NCBI GenBank assembly: GCA_902590345.1
Contig: CACIWK010000001.1
Location: 142,010 to 206,009, forward strand
Length of the DNA: 64,000 nt
Reading direction: 5' to 3'
From: an uncultured Pelagibacteraceae bacterium
GTDB lineage: Bacteria > Pseudomonadota > Alphaproteobacteria > Pelagibacterales > AG-422-B15
This document shows, one piece after another, positions 32,561-46,840 of this stretch; the stretch's first letter is position 1, and each line of letters starts with the position of its first letter. The notes beneath the pieces were generated by a model. That model had not been told where the DNA came from. It did no database searches and was given only the letters and a program-made list of their open reading frames with translations. The position numbers were made by a program, and so were the translations under genes.

Positions 32561-32637
32561 TGGCGCGCCGGGAGAGATTCGAACTCCCGACCCCCAGATT
32601 CGTAGTCTGGTGCTCTATCCAGCTGAGCCACCGGCGC
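32561..32637 (-). tRNA. tRNA-Arg (anticodon ACG)
   Basis: The reverse complement reads GCGCCGGTGGCTCAGCTGGATAGAGCACCAGACTACGAATCTGGGGGTCGGGAGTTCGAATCTCTCCCGGCGCGCCA. It has a 7-bp acceptor stem, anticodon loop CT-ACG-AA, a GTTCGAATC T-loop and an encoded CCA. Confidence 0.9.
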
Positions 32638-37597: not shown

Positions 37598-38743
37598 ATG
37601 GAAGTTGTTGAACTAACAAAATCACTTATTTCTTGTCCAAGTGTTACACCTAATAACGAAGGGGTATTAGACCTACTCCAAAAGGAGCTCACTGACATGG
37701 GATTTGTATGCAATCGTTATTTATTTAGTGATACTGATACCCCGGATGTAGACAATTTATTCGCAAAGATTGGGAGTGGTGCACCACATTTATGTTTTGG
37801 TGGTCATACTGATGTTGTTCCTGTTGGTGATGAAAATGCATGGAATTCAAATCCATTTGAGGCCACTGAAAAAAATGGAAAGTTATATGGCCGTGGTGCG
37901 AGTGATATGAAATCTGCTATAGCTGCATTTGTTTCAGCAGTAAGAGAATACCTAGAGAATAATGAGATGAAAGGCACCATAAGTCTCTTAATTACAAATG
38001 ATGAAGAAGGTCCTGCAATCAATGGGACAAGAAAAGTACTAGAAGAAATTTATAAAAATGGAGAAAAGATAGATAGTTGCTTGGTAGGGGAACCAACATG
38101 CCCAAGTAATTTAGGTGAAATGATTAAAATTGGAAGAAGAGGCAGTATTACCACAACTATTAAAGTTTCAGGGAAACAAGGTCATGTTGCCTATCCAGAA
38201 TGGACTCTCAACCCAATAAATCCTCTGACATCAATACTCAATACACTGTGTAATTTAGAGCTTGATAAAGGTACAGAAGACTTTCCACCATCAAATATGG
38301 AAATTGTTAAAATTGAGTCAAGTGAAGGTGCGACTAATATTGTTCCACAAACCTCAACTGGAATATTTAATATTCGGTACAATATTAATCACACAAAAGA
38401 GAGTCTTCAATCAATGATCAATGAAGTTGTTTCAAAAAATATCAATAATAGTGACTATAAAGTTGATATAACTTTTAACAATTCTGCAGAACCATTTTTA
38501 ACTGAAAAAGGTAAATTTACAGAGATAGTGAAAAGTTCTGTTGATGAGATTACAGGAATGAATTCTTCACTAACAACAACAGGTGGAACATCAGATGCAA
38601 GATTTTTTAAAGACTACTGCGAAGTAGCAGAGTTTGGACTTATTGGAGAGACCGCACACCAAATTGATGAAAATGTAAATACTGAGGACATAACTAAGCT
38701 TAAAGAAATTTATAGTCTTATAATCACTAAGTACTTCCAATAA
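37598..38743 (+). CDS. dapE: succinyl-diaminopimelate desuccinylase
   Basis: M20 motifs GGHTDVVP, GRGASDMKS, NDEEG. Confidence 0.85.
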   Translation: MEVVELTKSLISCPSVTPNNEGVLDLLQKELTDMGFVCNRYLFSDTDTPDVDNLFAKIGSGAPHLCFGGHTDVVPVGDENAWNSNPFEATEKNGKLYGRGASDMKSAIAAFVSAVREYLENNEMKGTISLLITNDEEGPAINGTRKVLEEIYKNGEKIDSCLVGEPTCPSNLGEMIKIGRRGSITTTIKVSGKQGHVAYPEWTLNPINPLTSILNTLCNLELDKGTEDFPPSNMEIVKIESSEGATNIVPQTSTGIFNIRYNINHTKESLQSMINEVVSKNINNSDYKVDITFNNSAEPFLTEKGKFTEIVKSSVDEITGMNSSLTTTGGTSDARFFKDYCEVAEFGLIGETAHQIDENVNTEDITKLKEIYSLIITKYFQ

Positions 38744-38876
38744 AAATCAACTATTTATCAATTTTAGAGCTATTTAGGTATTATACTATTAGCAACATTA
38801 GCATGATGGTCAAAGCTATATCCAATTTAAGGGGGGAAGGATTAAAATTCCATCTAGTTCCAAACATAATAAATAC

Positions 38877-38978
38877 CTAAATAATTGCTCCAGCTATTTG
38901 AAAAAGAAAGTAAACAGTCAAGATTACTGGGAAAGCCCTAAGAAAGTAGTTAAATGATTGCTCAAATATTTTTTTCAT
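38877..38978 (-). CDS. possible 33-aa hydrophobic mini-protein, open in frame past a TAG for 31 more codons (to the TAA at 38781-38783)
   Basis: Hand translation gives MKKIFEQSFNYFLRAFPVILTVYFLFQIAGAII-TAG-VFIMFGTRWNFNPSPLKLDIALTIMLMLLIV-TAA. That is 65 codons with a single stop, in AT-rich DNA. Confidence 0.2.
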   Translation of the reverse strand: MKKIFEQSFNYFLRAFPVILTVYFLFQIAGAII

Positions 38979-39023
38979 AATTATCTGTTACAGATTATTT
39001 GCTGAATTCGGGAGGGGAATAAC

Positions 39024-39119
39024 ATGTCAATTTGGCAAAGGCATAAAATTAATATTGATAGCTATTTGATTAGTATGTGGCCATGTTTGATGAAATGTAT
39101 AGCGATGACGCTCAAATAA
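39024..39119 (+). CDS. possible 31-codon upstream ORF with a strong Shine-Dalgarno sequence, overlapping the ATP-grasp gene start
   Basis: GGAGGGG at 39011-39017 lies about 8 nt before the ATG at 39024. Translation: MSIWQRHKINIDSYLISMWPCLMKCIAMTLK. Confidence 0.2.
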   Translation: MSIWQRHKINIDSYLISMWPCLMKCIAMTLK

Positions 39120-40489
39120 GAAAGCACTACTTACAAGTAAATTCATGGTTGAGAACCATGTCATCCACAGTTATTAGCCAAAAGAATTTTGAAGCTGAGT
39201 CTCATTTTAAAAGAATTGGTATTACTTTTTCGGTCAAAGATGATGATATGACTGAACGAATCATCCCTTTTGACCTAATTCCAAGAATTCTTACAAACTA
39301 TGAATGGGCTAAGATAGAAAAAGGTGTTCTACAAAGAGCGAAAGCTCTAAATGCTTTTCTTCACGATATTTATAATAGTGGTGAAATTTTTAAGGCGGGG
39401 ATTGTTCCAAAAGAAATTGTTTATAAAAAATCGTCGTATGATCAGTCTATGATCAACTTTTCACCTCCTAGAAAGATTTATAGTCCAATAATTGGTGTTG
39501 ACTTAGTCAGAACAGGAAAAGATGAGTTTTATGTTTTAGAAGACAACTGTCGTACACCATCTGGTGTTTCATACATGTTGGAAAATAGAGAAATCATGAT
39601 GAAAATGTTTCCTGATTTGTTTCACACGAATCGTGTTTTACGTGTTGATGACTATCCTACTAGATTATTGCAGACGCTTATGAGTCTTGCCCCAAAAAAA
39701 TGTGATAGCAATATACCAACAGTTGTCCTATTAACCCCAGGTCATTTAAATAGTGCATATTACGAGCATACTTTTTTATCCGACCAAATGGGTATTGAAA
39801 TGGTGGAGTCACAAGATCTTTTTGTTGAAAATGATTTGCTCTATATGAAGACAGTTGATGGACCAAAAAAAATAGATGTTGTTTATCGAAGAATTGATGA
39901 CGAATTTTTAGATCCTCTTTGTTATAACCCGGACTCAGTTATTGGTGTCCCGGGGATCACTCAAGTTTATAAAACAGGTGGTGTGAATATATGCTCAGCT
40001 CCTGGTGCTGGTATCGCAGACGACAAAGCTATTTATATATTTGTCCCTGAAATGATAAAATTTTACCTTGGTGAAACACCTATTCTAGATAATGTTGAAA
40101 CATGGAGATGTGAAAGAGATGACGAATTAACTTATGTATTAGAAAATATTGAAAAACTTGTGGTGAAAGAGGTTGATGGTTCAGGTGGTTATGGAATGTT
40201 AATTGGACCTAAATCAACTAAAGCTCAAATTTCAGACTTCTCTACTAAACTGAAAAGTAACCCTCGAGGATATATTGCTCAACCAACATTAGACTTATCA
40301 TCCTCACCAACTTTAATAGATAATGAAGTTTCAGGAAGACGAGTTGATTTACGTCCATTCTGTCTAGTTGGAGAAAAAGTACAATTATGCCCAGGGGGAT
40401 TAACAAGAGTTGCATTAAATAAAGGATCGTATGTAGTAAATTCATCACAAGGGGGAGGAGTAAAGGACACTTGGGTCCTCGCGGATTAA
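39077..40489 (+). CDS. circularly permuted type 2 ATP-grasp protein
   Basis: FDEMY..IRKHY N-terminus, GITF, IPFDLIPRI, LEDNCRTPSGVSYMLENR, YRRIDDEFLDPL, GAGIADDKAIY, GGLTRVAL..GSYVVNSSQGGGVKDTWVL. The start may instead be the ATG at 39083. Confidence 0.85.
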   Translation: MAMFDEMYSDDAQIRKHYLQVNSWLRTMSSTVISQKNFEAESHFKRIGITFSVKDDDMTERIIPFDLIPRILTNYEWAKIEKGVLQRAKALNAFLHDIYNSGEIFKAGIVPKEIVYKKSSYDQSMINFSPPRKIYSPIIGVDLVRTGKDEFYVLEDNCRTPSGVSYMLENREIMMKMFPDLFHTNRVLRVDDYPTRLLQTLMSLAPKKCDSNIPTVVLLTPGHLNSAYYEHTFLSDQMGIEMVESQDLFVENDLLYMKTVDGPKKIDVVYRRIDDEFLDPLCYNPDSVIGVPGITQVYKTGGVNICSAPGAGIADDKAIYIFVPEMIKFYLGETPILDNVETWRCERDDELTYVLENIEKLVVKEVDGSGGYGMLIGPKSTKAQISDFSTKLKSNPRGYIAQPTLDLSSSPTLIDNEVSGRRVDLRPFCLVGEKVQLCPGGLTRVALNKGSYVVNSSQGGGVKDTWVLAD

Positions 40490-40490
40490 C

Positions 40491-41426
40491 ATGCTAAGCA
40501 GAACAGCAGAGAATCTTTACTGGATTAGTAGATATATGGAAAGAGCAGAAACTATGGCACGCCTTCTTGATGTGGGTTATAGAATGTCCTTGTTTCCTAA
40601 CCCTAAAGGCTACCATAATGAATGGGACTCAGTATTATCAGCTGCAGGTGCCGCTCAGGGTTATTTTACTAAATACAATGAAATAAATCAGGAAAATGTT
40701 GAGGATTATATTTTTTTTGATGAAGAAAATCCTTCCTCAGTATACAGCTGTATATCCAAAGCTAGAAATAATGCTCTATTAGTGAGGACTGCATTCACTC
40801 CTGAGGCATGGGTTGCGATTAATAAGTCATACAAAGAGATATTGGAGCTAAAAAATAAAAAATTTACTCGTGCTGATCTACCAAACTTTACTGAATGGAC
40901 TATTCAACAAGTAAATATGTTTCGGGGATCAGCAAACTCATTATTACGAAATGACGGATATCATTTCATATTTCTTGGTACATTCATTGAACGAGCAGAT
41001 AATTCTGCAAGATTGCTCGATGTAAAATATTTTGTACTACTTCCCACTGCTGATTATATAGGGGGAAATCTTGATAATTTACAATGGATTATACTTTTAC
41101 GATCACTATCTTCATTTCGCGCTTTTAGATGGGCTTATGATGGAGACGTGACCTCAACAAAAATTGCGCATTTTTTTATACTTAATAATGATTGTTCACG
41201 TTCTTTAAGTTTTTGTATAAATAATATTGTTTATCATCTTAATTGTTTGAAATGCAGTCCTGATAAAATCAGTGATATTTACTCTGGCCTTAAATCAGTT
41301 CATAATTCTGTGAAAGACGAAACTGTCGAATCAATTATTGAATATGGTTTGCATGAGTATGTGACCAATTTTGTATCGAAGATATCTTTCTTAGACAATC
41401 AAATTCAAAATCATTTTTTTAGGTAG
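40491..41426 (+). CDS. Alpha-E domain protein
   Basis: MLSRTAENLYWISRYMERAETMARLLDV N-terminus and a second ERADNSARLLDVKY repeat; 1-nt spacer after the ATP-grasp gene. Confidence 0.85.
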   Translation: MLSRTAENLYWISRYMERAETMARLLDVGYRMSLFPNPKGYHNEWDSVLSAAGAAQGYFTKYNEINQENVEDYIFFDEENPSSVYSCISKARNNALLVRTAFTPEAWVAINKSYKEILELKNKKFTRADLPNFTEWTIQQVNMFRGSANSLLRNDGYHFIFLGTFIERADNSARLLDVKYFVLLPTADYIGGNLDNLQWIILLRSLSSFRAFRWAYDGDVTSTKIAHFFILNNDCSRSLSFCINNIVYHLNCLKCSPDKISDIYSGLKSVHNSVKDETVESIIEYGLHEYVTNFVSKISFLDNQIQNHFFR

Positions 41427-41429
41427 ATT

Positions 41430-42251
41430 ATGTTACTTACAATCAATCATACAACAAATTATGAATACGATGATAACCTATTAGGGTTAATTCAAACAAC
41501 AAAGTTGACTCCATCACCCTATAATGGTCTTAAAATTTTGGATTGGACTGTAAAAAGAAATAACAAATCTGGAGGCGAAATATTTAGAGATGGAGAGGGA
41601 AATAATATAATTAACTTCAAAGGCGAGCCATCAGAAAAGGAAATTAAATTTGTAGTTAAAGGTGAAGTTGAAACAATTGATACAAATGGAGTGTATGAAA
41701 GTTTGAATGATAAAATAGATCCTTATGTCTATTTAAGAAGTACAATTTTAACACTACCAAATGATAAAATAAAAGAGCTAGCTTCTATTGCCTCAAAAGA
41801 TTGTTCAAATGAAGATACTGTAACTATTGCTCATGACTTAATGCTCTTAATTGCGAAAAAAATTAAATATGAACCGTATACCACCAATACGAACACAACT
41901 GCAGCTATGTCAATAGATCAAGAAAAGGGTGTTTGCCAAGATCAAGCACATATAATGATTTCTGCTGCTAGAAATCTGGGCATTCCCTCAAGATATGTAA
42001 ATGGCTACATGCATAAAAATAGAAATGACTCTGAATTTCAAGCTACACACGCATGGGCTGAACTTTATATAGATAAACTTGGTTGGGTTGGATTTGATCC
42101 TACAAATCAATGTTGTCCTGATGAGAGATATATTCGAGTTTCATGCGGCTTAGATGCAAGTTATGCGGCGCCAATCAGAGGGATCTTTTATGGTAACACC
42201 GCAGAAAAATTAGATATAAATGTTCAAACAATTGAAAACTGCTCACAATAA
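41430..42251 (+). CDS. transglutaminase-family cysteine protease/transamidase (Bact_transglu_N plus core)
   Basis: Intact Cys-His-Asp triad context: GVCQDQAH, THAWAELY, GFDPTN. Confidence 0.85.
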   Translation: MLLTINHTTNYEYDDNLLGLIQTTKLTPSPYNGLKILDWTVKRNNKSGGEIFRDGEGNNIINFKGEPSEKEIKFVVKGEVETIDTNGVYESLNDKIDPYVYLRSTILTLPNDKIKELASIASKDCSNEDTVTIAHDLMLLIAKKIKYEPYTTNTNTTAAMSIDQEKGVCQDQAHIMISAARNLGIPSRYVNGYMHKNRNDSEFQATHAWAELYIDKLGWVGFDPTNQCCPDERYIRVSCGLDASYAAPIRGIFYGNTAEKLDINVQTIENCSQ

Positions 42252-42992
42252 TTAGTATTTAACCTCCATAAAATATAATCCCTCAGGAGGAGCAAGTGCC
42301 CCGCATTTAGAGCGATCTTTTGAATTAAACGCTTTTTCAAAATCACCAGACGACCAACTTTTTTCTCCAACTAGCTTTAAACTTCCAACAATTGATCTAA
42401 CTTGATGATGCAGAAATGATTTTGCAGTGAAACCGAAATAGATATTTTCTTCTGATTGACTAATTTTTAGGCTGTCTAAAGTTTTTATTGGACTATCAGA
42501 TTGACAATGGGCCGAACGGAATGTTGTAAAGTCATGCTGACCCTCAATTGAAGGAATGCATTCCTTCATCAAATCAACATCAATGTCTTTATGTACTTGC
42601 CAAGCTCTTCCCTTCTCAATAGTGAGTGGTGACTTTCTGTTTACTATTCTATAAAGGTATTTTCTCTGAGTTGCATCAAATCTTGCATGAAAATCATTAT
42701 GTGCTTTCTCTACTTCCAATATGGAAATAGGAAATGGCCTCAAATGATCGTTTAATGCATTCTTAATCACATATGGTTCAAGTAATTTGTCTGTAACATC
42801 AAAATGAGCGACCTGCCCCATTGCGTGGACACCTGCATCTGTTCTACCAGCCCCAAAAATAGTTATGTTTTCCTCAAATATATTACTTATTACTTTTTCA
42901 ATACACCCTTGAACTGATTGTCCATTTTCTTGTCTTTGCCATCCGACAAACGGAGTACCATCATACTCAATTTTTATTTTAAACCTATTCAT
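42252..42992 (-). CDS. truA: tRNA pseudouridine(38-40) synthase
   Basis: GAGRTDAGVHA catalytic Asp motif. Confidence 0.9.
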   Translation of the reverse strand: MNRFKIKIEYDGTPFVGWQRQENGQSVQGCIEKVISNIFEENITIFGAGRTDAGVHAMGQVAHFDVTDKLLEPYVIKNALNDHLRPFPISILEVEKAHNDFHARFDATQRKYLYRIVNRKSPLTIEKGRAWQVHKDIDVDLMKECIPSIEGQHDFTTFRSAHCQSDSPIKTLDSLKISQSEENIYFGFTAKSFLHHQVRSIVGSLKLVGEKSWSSGDFEKAFNSKDRSKCGALAPPEGLYFMEVKY

Positions 42993-46725: not shown

Positions 46726-46743
46726 AAAAATCACTAATCTTTA

Positions 46744-46835
46744 GTGGGAGATCAACGTAACCCAAATATCTTCGTTACGGCTGCTTCTTTTCAGACCTGA
46801 CCGGATTGGCGAATAACTTGTCTACTCAATCTCCC
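46744..46835 (-). ncRNA. ffs: signal recognition particle RNA (4.5S, small bacterial type)
   Basis: The reverse complement contains CCGGTCAGGTCTGAAAAGAAGCAGCC, which closely matches the conserved domain IV of E. coli 4.5S (GGUCAGGUCCGGAAGGAAGCAGCC). Terminal GGGAGAT/ATCTCCC pairing closes the hairpin. It sits just upstream of dnaX, the usual position. Confidence 0.8.
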
Positions 46836-46840
46836 AAAAT

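Follow-up and report, generated by a model that had tools for sequence, protein, structure and literature searches.

A minimal, Anbu-less ATP-grasp/Alpha-E/transglutaminase operon in SAR11 and glutamine riboswitches before orthologous operons of marine bacteria

Introduction

The four-gene 'Anbu operon' of bacteria was defined by Valas & Bourne 2008 (PMC3235984), who also noted that its ligase, COG2308, occurs in genomes without Anbu, so that stand-alone forms were already known. Iyer et al. 2009 predicted a system for peptide synthesis or tagging, as restated by later papers (PMC5666114, PMC6376114, PMC3495828), and the idea of a ligase and a hydrolase forming a write/erase pair is in print in Zhang & Aravind 2012; the write/erase pair is accordingly an existing prediction of 2009–2012. 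Here we analyse an Anbu-less member of this family, a module of three genes (ATP-grasp, Alpha-E and transglutaminase-fold) at positions 39083–42251 of a 64,000-nt stretch of DNA, hereafter the window, from an uncultured Pelagibacteraceae (SAR11) bacterium (assembly GCA_902590345.1, contig CACIWK010000001.1, positions 142,010 to 206,009).

Nitrogen limitation has been connected with this family in cultured bacteria. The operon was reported to be the most up-regulated gene set of nitrogen-limited Pseudomonas putida (note added in proof, PMC3235984), induction of P. putida PP_2685-2688 under nitrogen limitation is seen in two further datasets (PMC3325844, PMC8050072), and the Burkholderia cenocepacia cluster is 6- to 9-fold lower in an ntrC mutant (PMC5491218). 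A study of nitrogen limitation in SAR11 makes no mention of the module genes in its main text. As to activity, release of orthophosphate from ATP has been reported for the ATP-grasp encoded in the Yersinia operon (PMC6376114). Despite its large size (at least 7,384 Alpha-E and at least 8,000 ATP-grasp proteins above thresholds in database searches), the family has counted as an orphan since 2008–2009, and it is also of interest for Anbu, a relative of the proteasome. We put the probability at roughly 0.55 that the module in the window is a minimal Anbu-less amidoligase operon, functional in SAR11, that constitutes a nitrogen-linked ligase/hydrolase module; the version of this reading in which proteins are tagged has roughly one chance in three. 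A preliminary description of the stretch, made by a model from the sequence alone, had pointed out the three-gene module, which is confirmed here, and its interpretation is supported; it overlooked the link to nitrogen status, which is the most telling clue to function.

Results

The three-gene module in the window

The module consists of the following genes:

39083..40489, + strand: circularly permuted (CP) type-2 ATP-grasp gene, 468 amino acids (aa), a predicted ATP-dependent carboxylate-amine ligase
40491..41426, + strand: Alpha-E gene, 311 aa, all-helical and internally duplicated, the obligatory partner of the ligase
41430..42251, + strand: transglutaminase-fold gene, 273 aa, with Bact_transglu_N and Transglut_core domains

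The three genes share the + strand and lie 1 nt (ATP-grasp/Alpha-E) and 3 nt (Alpha-E/transglutaminase) apart, and these coordinates agree with the three tightly packed, co-directional open reading frames (ORFs) of the preliminary description. A correction concerns the start of the first gene, which had been listed as the GTG at 39077 that opens the mechanical ORF (39077-40489, 470 aa), whereas the upstream alignment across related genomes shows a conserved ATG at 39083 (MFDEMY...). The latter is taken as the true start because of this conservation, and the public gene calls give a 468-aa product. The truA gene (42252-42992, - strand) is flush against the end of the transglutaminase gene, with zero bases between the two, and the wider context is one of housekeeping genes (yidC, argB, dapD and dapE upstream; truA, fmt, def, recR, ybaB and dnaX downstream). 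In four other SAR11 genomes, independent gene calls with precomputed Pfam assignments recover these three genes with the same surroundings.

The domain assignments proposed earlier (CP ATP-grasp, Alpha-E, transglutaminase) all hold in a Pfam profile search: the ATP-grasp matches the full-length CP_ATPgrasp_2 profile (E 3.7e-154) as well as CP_ATPgrasp_1 (1.6e-137), the Alpha-E protein covers the full Alpha-E profile (8.6e-83), and the third protein matches Bact_transglu_N (8.8e-10) and Transglut_core (1.1e-21). In the ATP-grasp, the motifs quoted from the letters are found at residues 154, 310 and 456, and in the transglutaminase at residues 167, 207 and 221. The Cys/His/Asp context of the latter is intact, as had been claimed, since Cys169, His207 and Asp223 align with the Cys/His/Asp of two transglutaminase-fold structures in the PDB, 3isr and 6g49, and are invariant in 77 homologues. 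On sequence grounds, the transglutaminase-fold protein is predicted to be a cytoplasmic Cys-His-Asp thiol amidohydrolase or transamidase.

No characterised ligase family lays claim to the first protein, in line with the preliminary description. None of the three module proteins matched a named family of NCBIfam, the sole PDB match of the ATP-grasp is 3n6x (E 6.4e-176), an uncharacterised structural-genomics entry, and a family-profile search of the PDB reached only 3n6x and no characterised ligase. An AlphaFold2 model of the ATP-grasp was poor (predicted local distance difference test (pLDDT) 50, predicted template-modelling score (pTM) 0.38, from a shallow alignment) and unusable. The depositors named 3n6x a 'putative glutathionylspermidine synthase', which favours a role in small-molecule salvage or conjugation: the ligase would make a metabolite amide (e.g. 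a gamma-glutamyl or a glutathione-like amine or polyamine conjugate), the thiol enzyme would be the matching amidase, and no protein would be tagged, by analogy with glutathionylspermidine synthetase/amidase or ATP-dependent urea amidolyase. Such a role also finds favour in that the module has no neighbour, conserved across lineages, that could encode a tag or substrate. However, Pfam reports for the ATP-grasp the CP_ATPgrasp families alone, with GSP_synth absent, no characterised ligase lies within profile reach in the PDB, and no transporter or other metabolic gene accompanies the module; nor is there a CHAP amidase domain among the Pfam matches of the thiol enzyme, for which Transglut_core is reported. 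A metabolite amide as the product is the main alternative reading, which we hold to be possible and rather doubtful.

Conservation and selection

Conservation was assessed over 80 related loci, 29 SAR11-type and 51 Rhodobacterales-type, with flanks of up to 10 kb. The closest relatives of the window ligase, at 99-100% identity, are encoded with the same synteny in single-cell genomes of uncultured Pelagibacteraceae (SAR11), and a near-identical allele occurs on 261 contigs from several ocean datasets among the matches listed. Gene order is kept in the 80 loci and the triad is intact in every one that is unbroken by a contig end, which puts the module far beyond chance. At the Rhodobacterales distance, identity to the window is 60-63% (about 61%) for the ATP-grasp, 44-50% (about 47%) for Alpha-E and 38-45% (about 41%) for the transglutaminase, and in 80 homologues from SAR11 to Rhodobacterales, conservation reaches 98% or more at 208 of the 470 ATP-grasp positions, as would be expected of a ligase with a universal small substrate.

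Between the window and locus L011, a comparison that is unsaturated (synonymous divergence, dS, 0.14-0.19), the ratio of nonsynonymous to synonymous divergence (dN/dS) is 0.046 for the ATP-grasp, 0.010 for Alpha-E and 0.065 for the transglutaminase, and the module genes are equal to or tighter than the neighbouring housekeeping genes (0.03-0.12). Such low ratios (0.01-0.07) argue that the three-gene form of SAR11 is functional and under strong purifying selection, as had been proposed for this three-gene core. The contrary reading would make the module a decaying, non-functional remnant of the four-gene Anbu operon, and Anbu is indeed missing from the window and from all SAR11-type loci. Yet, truncation at contig ends apart, no SAR11-type locus has a broken frame in any of the three genes, the catalytic residues do not vary, and the near-identical allele recurs on the 261 ocean contigs; the selection data refute decay, to which we attach practically no weight.

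Divergence around the module is mosaic in some pairs of loci (window 37598-42992 versus L007, and also L008 versus L009/L010), in that the flanking genes have a dS of ~0.1-0.15, the module genes are saturated (dS 2.4-3.3) and the values for dapE and truA fall in between. Homologous recombination at a fixed chromosomal site appears to have exchanged the cassette and its upstream gap among SAR11 lineages. Beside the cassette, a 139-aa 4HBT_2 thioesterase gene lies between dapE and two small ORFs (see below) in L009 and L011 (L011 7258-7677, - strand) and not in the window, an insertion/deletion polymorphism among Pelagibacteraceae genomes.

Glutamine riboswitches before orthologous operons

Aptamers of the glutamine riboswitch family RF01739 precede orthologous operons in other marine bacteria. 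In AT-rich marine alphaproteobacterial single-cell genomes (L014-L029), with a ligase identity of 73-76% to that of the window and a different chromosomal context, two tandem aptamers are situated in the operon leader at 16 of the 16 loci (59.5-66 bits); L028, which shows one copy, is truncated at its contig start. A single aptamer is found ~41 nt before the ATG in a second alphaproteobacterial group (L092, L101, L103 and L143; ligase identity 56-60%), and likewise a single one in SAR86 Gammaproteobacteria (L147, L185, L197 and L203; 44-47%). The gathering score of RF01739 is 35 bits, the aptamers before ATP-grasp operons score 59-66 bits, and a re-scan of seven single aptamers (L092, L101, L103 and the four SAR86 loci) placed all of them above the gathering score. 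Ames & Breaker 2011 aside, the published targets of glutamine riboswitches are PII, glnA, gltB, amt, PMT1479 and gifB/DUF4278, with this operon not among them, and a literature search found no paper that combines 'glutamine riboswitch' with 'ATP-grasp'. The riboswitch leaders on the orthologous operons are a new observation of this analysis.

The regulon was scanned with the aptamer core pattern over species-representative genomes, which gave at least 120 stretches, a sample and not a census. Among the matches listed, the first downstream gene was identifiable for 111 aptamer groups (clusters verified by Pfam), with the following counts:

Ammonium transporter (amt): 21
CP ATP-grasp family of the module: 19
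Glutamine synthetase (glnA): 16
Cyanobacterial small ORFs: 18 + 8 + 3
Gcw_chp porin-like protein: 7
Glutamate synthase large subunit (gltB): 2
Glutamate synthase small subunit (gltD): 2

Among these matches, the ATP-grasp operon is about as frequent a riboswitch target as amt and glnA, and within single genomes (e.g. AG-414-N23 and AG-470-M17) the riboswitch is found on amt and on the ATP-grasp operon both. In AT-rich marine Alphaproteobacteria, the leaders of amt and of the ATP-grasp operon also have in common a post-aptamer box (...AATTTCCATAGCTAAGCATGA...), a close variant of which (TTTCATAACTAG.GCATGA) is present in glnA leaders; the strict box follows 44 of the 140 aptamer groups among the matches listed and may be an expression platform common to these leaders or, alternatively, a leader ORF of very short length. 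Examples of the box are L109 6006-6185, L119 3414-3590 and L088 2310-2555 (range L086-L204). Folding of the leaders in the second alphaproteobacterial group gave a hairpin, CUCUUUC/GAAAGAG, just before the AUG when the aptamer helix was enforced (L092 and L101); by sequestering the ribosome-binding site, it would fit glutamine-dependent repression. However, the L101 hairpin also arises without constraint, and the pairings that compete with it are poorly conserved.

The riboswitch leaders, together with the NtrC-dependent induction in Pseudomonas and Burkholderia, place the module in nitrogen metabolism. Co-regulation with amt, glnA and gltBD, i.e. with small-molecule nitrogen assimilation, would at the same time suit a ligase that makes a metabolite amide, as would the co-variation of the module domains with urea-metabolism domains in ocean metagenomes (PMC3597751). 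Another reading would have the module act as a regulatory switch that reversibly modifies one nitrogen-assimilation enzyme or regulator (e.g. glutamine synthetase) and so replaces PII/GlnD/GlnE in streamlined genomes. In agreement with this, SAR11 is without GlnB, GlnD, GlnK and NtrBC (PMC3870248), the same riboswitch class controls the cyanobacterial glutamine synthetase-inactivating factor (PMC6212724), and the leader architecture is common to the operon, glnA and amt. However, Pseudomonas and Burkholderia also carry the operon and induce it by way of nitrogen status although they possess a responsive NtrC and PII (glnB, glnK), so that it is not merely a replacement of that machinery; we consider a switch of this kind unlikely.

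Several other aptamers of the scan were recorded. A tandem aptamer pair stands before each of two adjacent amt paralogues in two marine alphaproteobacterial genomes (L118, 411-529 and 2453-2570; L177, 38-156 and 2078-2196), and unannotated small ORFs lie downstream of the aptamers in L099, L178 and L179 (SAR86 and other Gammaproteobacteria), L189 and L201. One family of small ORFs after aptamers is 52-54 aa long and ends in ...KKD(L/V)FFPYYL, and a second is 71 aa long and starts with MTKWEYK(I/V)VDHSNS... In L029, an Rfam match to 5_ureB_sRNA (253-543, - strand, 103 bits) is located ~7.5 kb upstream of the riboswitch-controlled module and most likely reflects the coding region of urease ureB, which is of note in view of the metagenomic link of the module domains with urea metabolism.

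Anbu and the hydrolase complement across lineages

In the Rhodobacterales-type loci, a 241-aa protein encoded ~30 nt downstream of the transglutaminase gene is Anbu, as its matches to Anbu structures of the PDB (E 1e-70 to 1e-75) and to the Pfam Proteasome family indicate. By tblastn, Anbu was found in 48 of the 51 non-SAR11 loci, the remaining three of which end just past the ligase, whereas the 64-kb window and the 29 SAR11-type loci (527 kb together) gave no match even at E <= 10; the absence of Anbu noted in the preliminary description is thus borne out. The SAR86 locus has the order esterase, Anbu (-), riboswitch, ATP-grasp (+) and Alpha-E (+), with a convergent 425-aa gene, prolyl-tRNA synthetase-like, directly after Alpha-E. 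Over loci of 8-17 kb, the lineages compare as follows:

SAR11-type and second alphaproteobacterial group: ligase and Alpha-E, yes; transglutaminase, yes; Anbu, no
SAR86: ligase and Alpha-E, yes; transglutaminase, no; Anbu, yes
Rhodobacterales-type: ligase and Alpha-E, yes; transglutaminase, yes; Anbu, yes

By gene content, the SAR86 reduction looks like a mirror image of the SAR11 reduction. As the SAR11 and SAR86 loci keep different single hydrolases, the simplest reading would be that the ligase and Alpha-E form the indispensable core and that one hydrolase suffices. Weighing against it, the search for a transglutaminase in SAR86 (none at E <= 10) covered the 8-kb loci, and a copy elsewhere in the genome is possible. 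The frequent partnership with Anbu, a member of the proteasome family, is easier to reconcile with peptide or protein substrates and speaks against a purely small-molecule role.

The Alpha-E protein

The AlphaFold2 model of the Alpha-E protein is confident (pLDDT 85, pTM 0.86) and all-helical, with 15 helices. A Foldseek search of this model against the PDB gave nothing significant (best E 0.2, TM ~0.2). The protein is internally duplicated, residues 8-95 corresponding to residues 158-250 (hhalign probability 97.3%, E 2.7e-11); the repeated helical module is ~150 aa long and carries the motif ERA(E/D)xxARLLDV once per half, the conserved charged residues of which are invariant across 41 and 77 sequences. 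Alpha-E directly follows the ATP-grasp in every lineage examined, SAR86 included. This invariable coupling to the ligase, together with the lowest dN/dS of the three genes, argues for Alpha-E as a probable functional subunit or specificity factor and not a passive tag. A confident fold without a solved relative makes Alpha-E the main structural question of the system.

The control region of the window copy

The operon of the window is preceded by a gap of ~333 nt, bounded on the far side by dapE, in which three further features were noted:

39025..39052, + strand: conserved 28-nt box, TGTCA-N3-TGGCAA-N3-CAT-N-AAATTAA, starting 58 nt before the ATP-grasp ATG
38877..38978, - strand: small ORF-a, 33 aa, hydrophobic, MKKIFEQSFNYFLRAFPVILTVYFLFQIAGAII, divergent from the operon
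38781..38867, - strand: small ORF-b, 28 aa, MFGTRWNFNPSPLKLDIALTIMLMLLIV (MFGT[KR]WNFNPSP...), with one hydrophobic helix

Searches of this region for known elements gave no match to RF01739 at E <= 10 in 38650-39200, no match to the aptamer core pattern in the lineage of the window, no credible Rfam match in the gap, and only background levels in promoter and terminator consensus scans of the gap. The 28-nt box is matched exactly in 11 of the 11 Pelagibacteraceae loci that reach upstream, and its pattern occurs once in the 64-kb window. Invariant columns amount to 21 of 28 in the box as against 11 of 76 in the remaining intergenic stretch, and the spacing is constant and gapless in six diverged genomes. 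No Rfam family matches the box, which is a candidate operator, promoter element or 5'-untranslated region element.

Three other interpretations of the region were rejected. The box is not read as a sigma-54 promoter (TGGCA...GCAT), the GG-to-GC spacing being ~7 nt and not 12; SAR11 is also not known to have rpoN. A 14/17 match (E 0.2) of the leader to a degenerate post-aptamer box is treated as chance because it is not conserved within the group of the window. A 31-aa ORF on the + strand (39024-39119) with a strong Shine-Dalgarno-like GGGAGGGG is spurious, its start codon being missing in L008-L010.

At the protein level, ORF-a is conserved in 14 related loci, but the L014-L029 group, which has the module in another context, does not have it; ORF-b is conserved in all Pelagibacteraceae loci covering the region, including L012. 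The two are separate genes because their frames differ in L010, neither has a Pfam match, and the public gene calls omit both. Their membership in the module is doubtful. Two conserved small ORFs just upstream, the exchange of the cassette between SAR11 genomes by recombination and, more generally, the fact that ATP-grasp ligases make macrocyclic ribosomal peptides elsewhere could be taken to favour a secondary-metabolite cassette (a graspetide-like ribosomal peptide) or an anti-phage cassette, unlinked to core nitrogen physiology. However, the small ORFs are on the opposite strand, hydrophobic and confined to the lineage of the window (not L014-L029), and no precursor-peptide gene accompanies the module; none of the three proteins matched a PADLOC model at E <= 0.01; and the module resides at a fixed site among housekeeping genes, with high and not diversifying conservation. 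A cassette of either kind is very unlikely.

In the remainder of the window, the only Rfam matches at gathering score in 64 kb are a bacterial small signal recognition particle RNA just downstream of dnaX (46740-46838, - strand, 50.7 bits) and a tRNA gene (32564-32637, - strand).

Discussion

The nitrogen-linked ligase/hydrolase module that we favour would work in two steps. The ATP-grasp, with Alpha-E, would spend ATP on converting a carboxylate into an acyl-phosphate and join it to an amine, giving an amide or isopeptide bond, and the transglutaminase-fold Cys-His-Asp enzyme would hydrolyse or transfer that bond. The hydrolase slot would be filled by the transglutaminase in SAR11, by Anbu in SAR86 and by both in most bacteria. 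As to the substrate, we lean towards a peptide or protein carboxylate, with a reversible tagging or processing that would serve amino-acid and nitrogen recycling. We infer the ligase-then-amidase cycle and the type of substrate, as well as the nitrogen regulation of the window's own copy and the direction of that regulation. More tentatively, and with a chance well below even, the ATP-grasp/Alpha-E pair with its interchangeable hydrolase may represent an unrecognised core of the bacterial nitrogen economy, wired to glutamine alongside Amt, glutamine synthetase and glutamate synthase (GOGAT) in streamlined ocean bacteria and carrying out ATP-dependent salvage or a pupylation-like recycling of protein nitrogen.

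A number of points weigh against the nitrogen-linked ligase/hydrolase reading. The window has no RF01739 match at gathering score over its 64 kb, and nitrogen control of its copy is only extrapolated, because its own lineage is without the glutamine riboswitch. Regarding the direction of control, the one glutamine riboswitch so far characterised turns translation on, Klähn et al. called the riboswitch effect on marine glnA genes unknown, and of the riboswitch-associated Amt paralogues of cultured SAR11 one is found in nitrogen-replete cells only and another in nitrogen-limited cells only. In Yersinia, no stable complex of the operon proteins was detected and Anbu was without peptidase activity on standard substrates (PMC6376114), and the Pseudomonas operon is non-essential under non-stress conditions. 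That the ligase is so highly conserved can be explained by an invariant small-molecule substrate no less well than by a protein target. Finally, the literature search found no substrate, product or phenotype for any family member, in agreement with the preliminary description.

The added value of the analysis lies mostly outside the window, in that the riboswitch wiring and the complementary reductions in SAR11 and SAR86 supply a physiological axis and a minimal parts list. The riboswitch and NtrC evidence points the search for a substrate or phenotype to glutamine and to shifts in nitrogen supply, and the two reduced versions offer a simpler reconstitution. If the module does serve nitrogen recycling or salvage, it would bear on how the most abundant heterotrophs of the ocean face chronic nitrogen scarcity, and given the abundance of SAR11 and SAR86 it would be among the most widely deployed unexplained enzyme systems of the surface ocean.

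Compared with the Anbu operon family, the module in the window has the same three families in the same order, the same tight coupling and the same intact Cys-His-Asp triad, and the same predictions apply, i.e. a peptide ligase and a peptidase that reverses the tag; it differs in the missing Anbu gene, in its streamlined SAR11 host and in a control region marked by a lineage-specific conserved box. By domain families (DUF404/407, equivalent to CP_ATPgrasp; DUF403, equivalent to Alpha-E; and a transglutaminase-like protein), it may be likened to P. putida PP_2685-PP_2688 and B. cenocepacia I35_5080-5083, which are activated by NtrC/sigma-54 under nitrogen limitation; unlike the window, the P. 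putida operon has Anbu and the Burkholderia cluster an extra large transglutaminase-domain protein. Within the RF01739 regulon, the ATP-grasp operons of three marine lineages stand directly behind aptamers, like amt, glnA and gltBD, whereas the operon of the window does not. Glutathionylspermidine synthetase/amidase, which joins an ATP-grasp amide ligase to a papain-like cysteine amidase, is a proven write/erase pair, although it is one fused polypeptide with a CHAP amidase and a ligase of the GSP_synth family, and has no Alpha-E. The Pup-proteasome system of actinobacteria comprises a carboxylate-amine tagging ligase, a tag-removing enzyme and a protease of the proteasome family, and is linked to amino-acid recycling under nitrogen starvation; its PafA/Dop enzymes have an unrelated, glutamine synthetase-like fold, whereas the module in the window is without a Pup-like tag gene, an ATPase ring or Anbu. 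The kind of system and the mechanistic hypothesis are known, and the minimal Anbu-less form of SAR11 is a new member.

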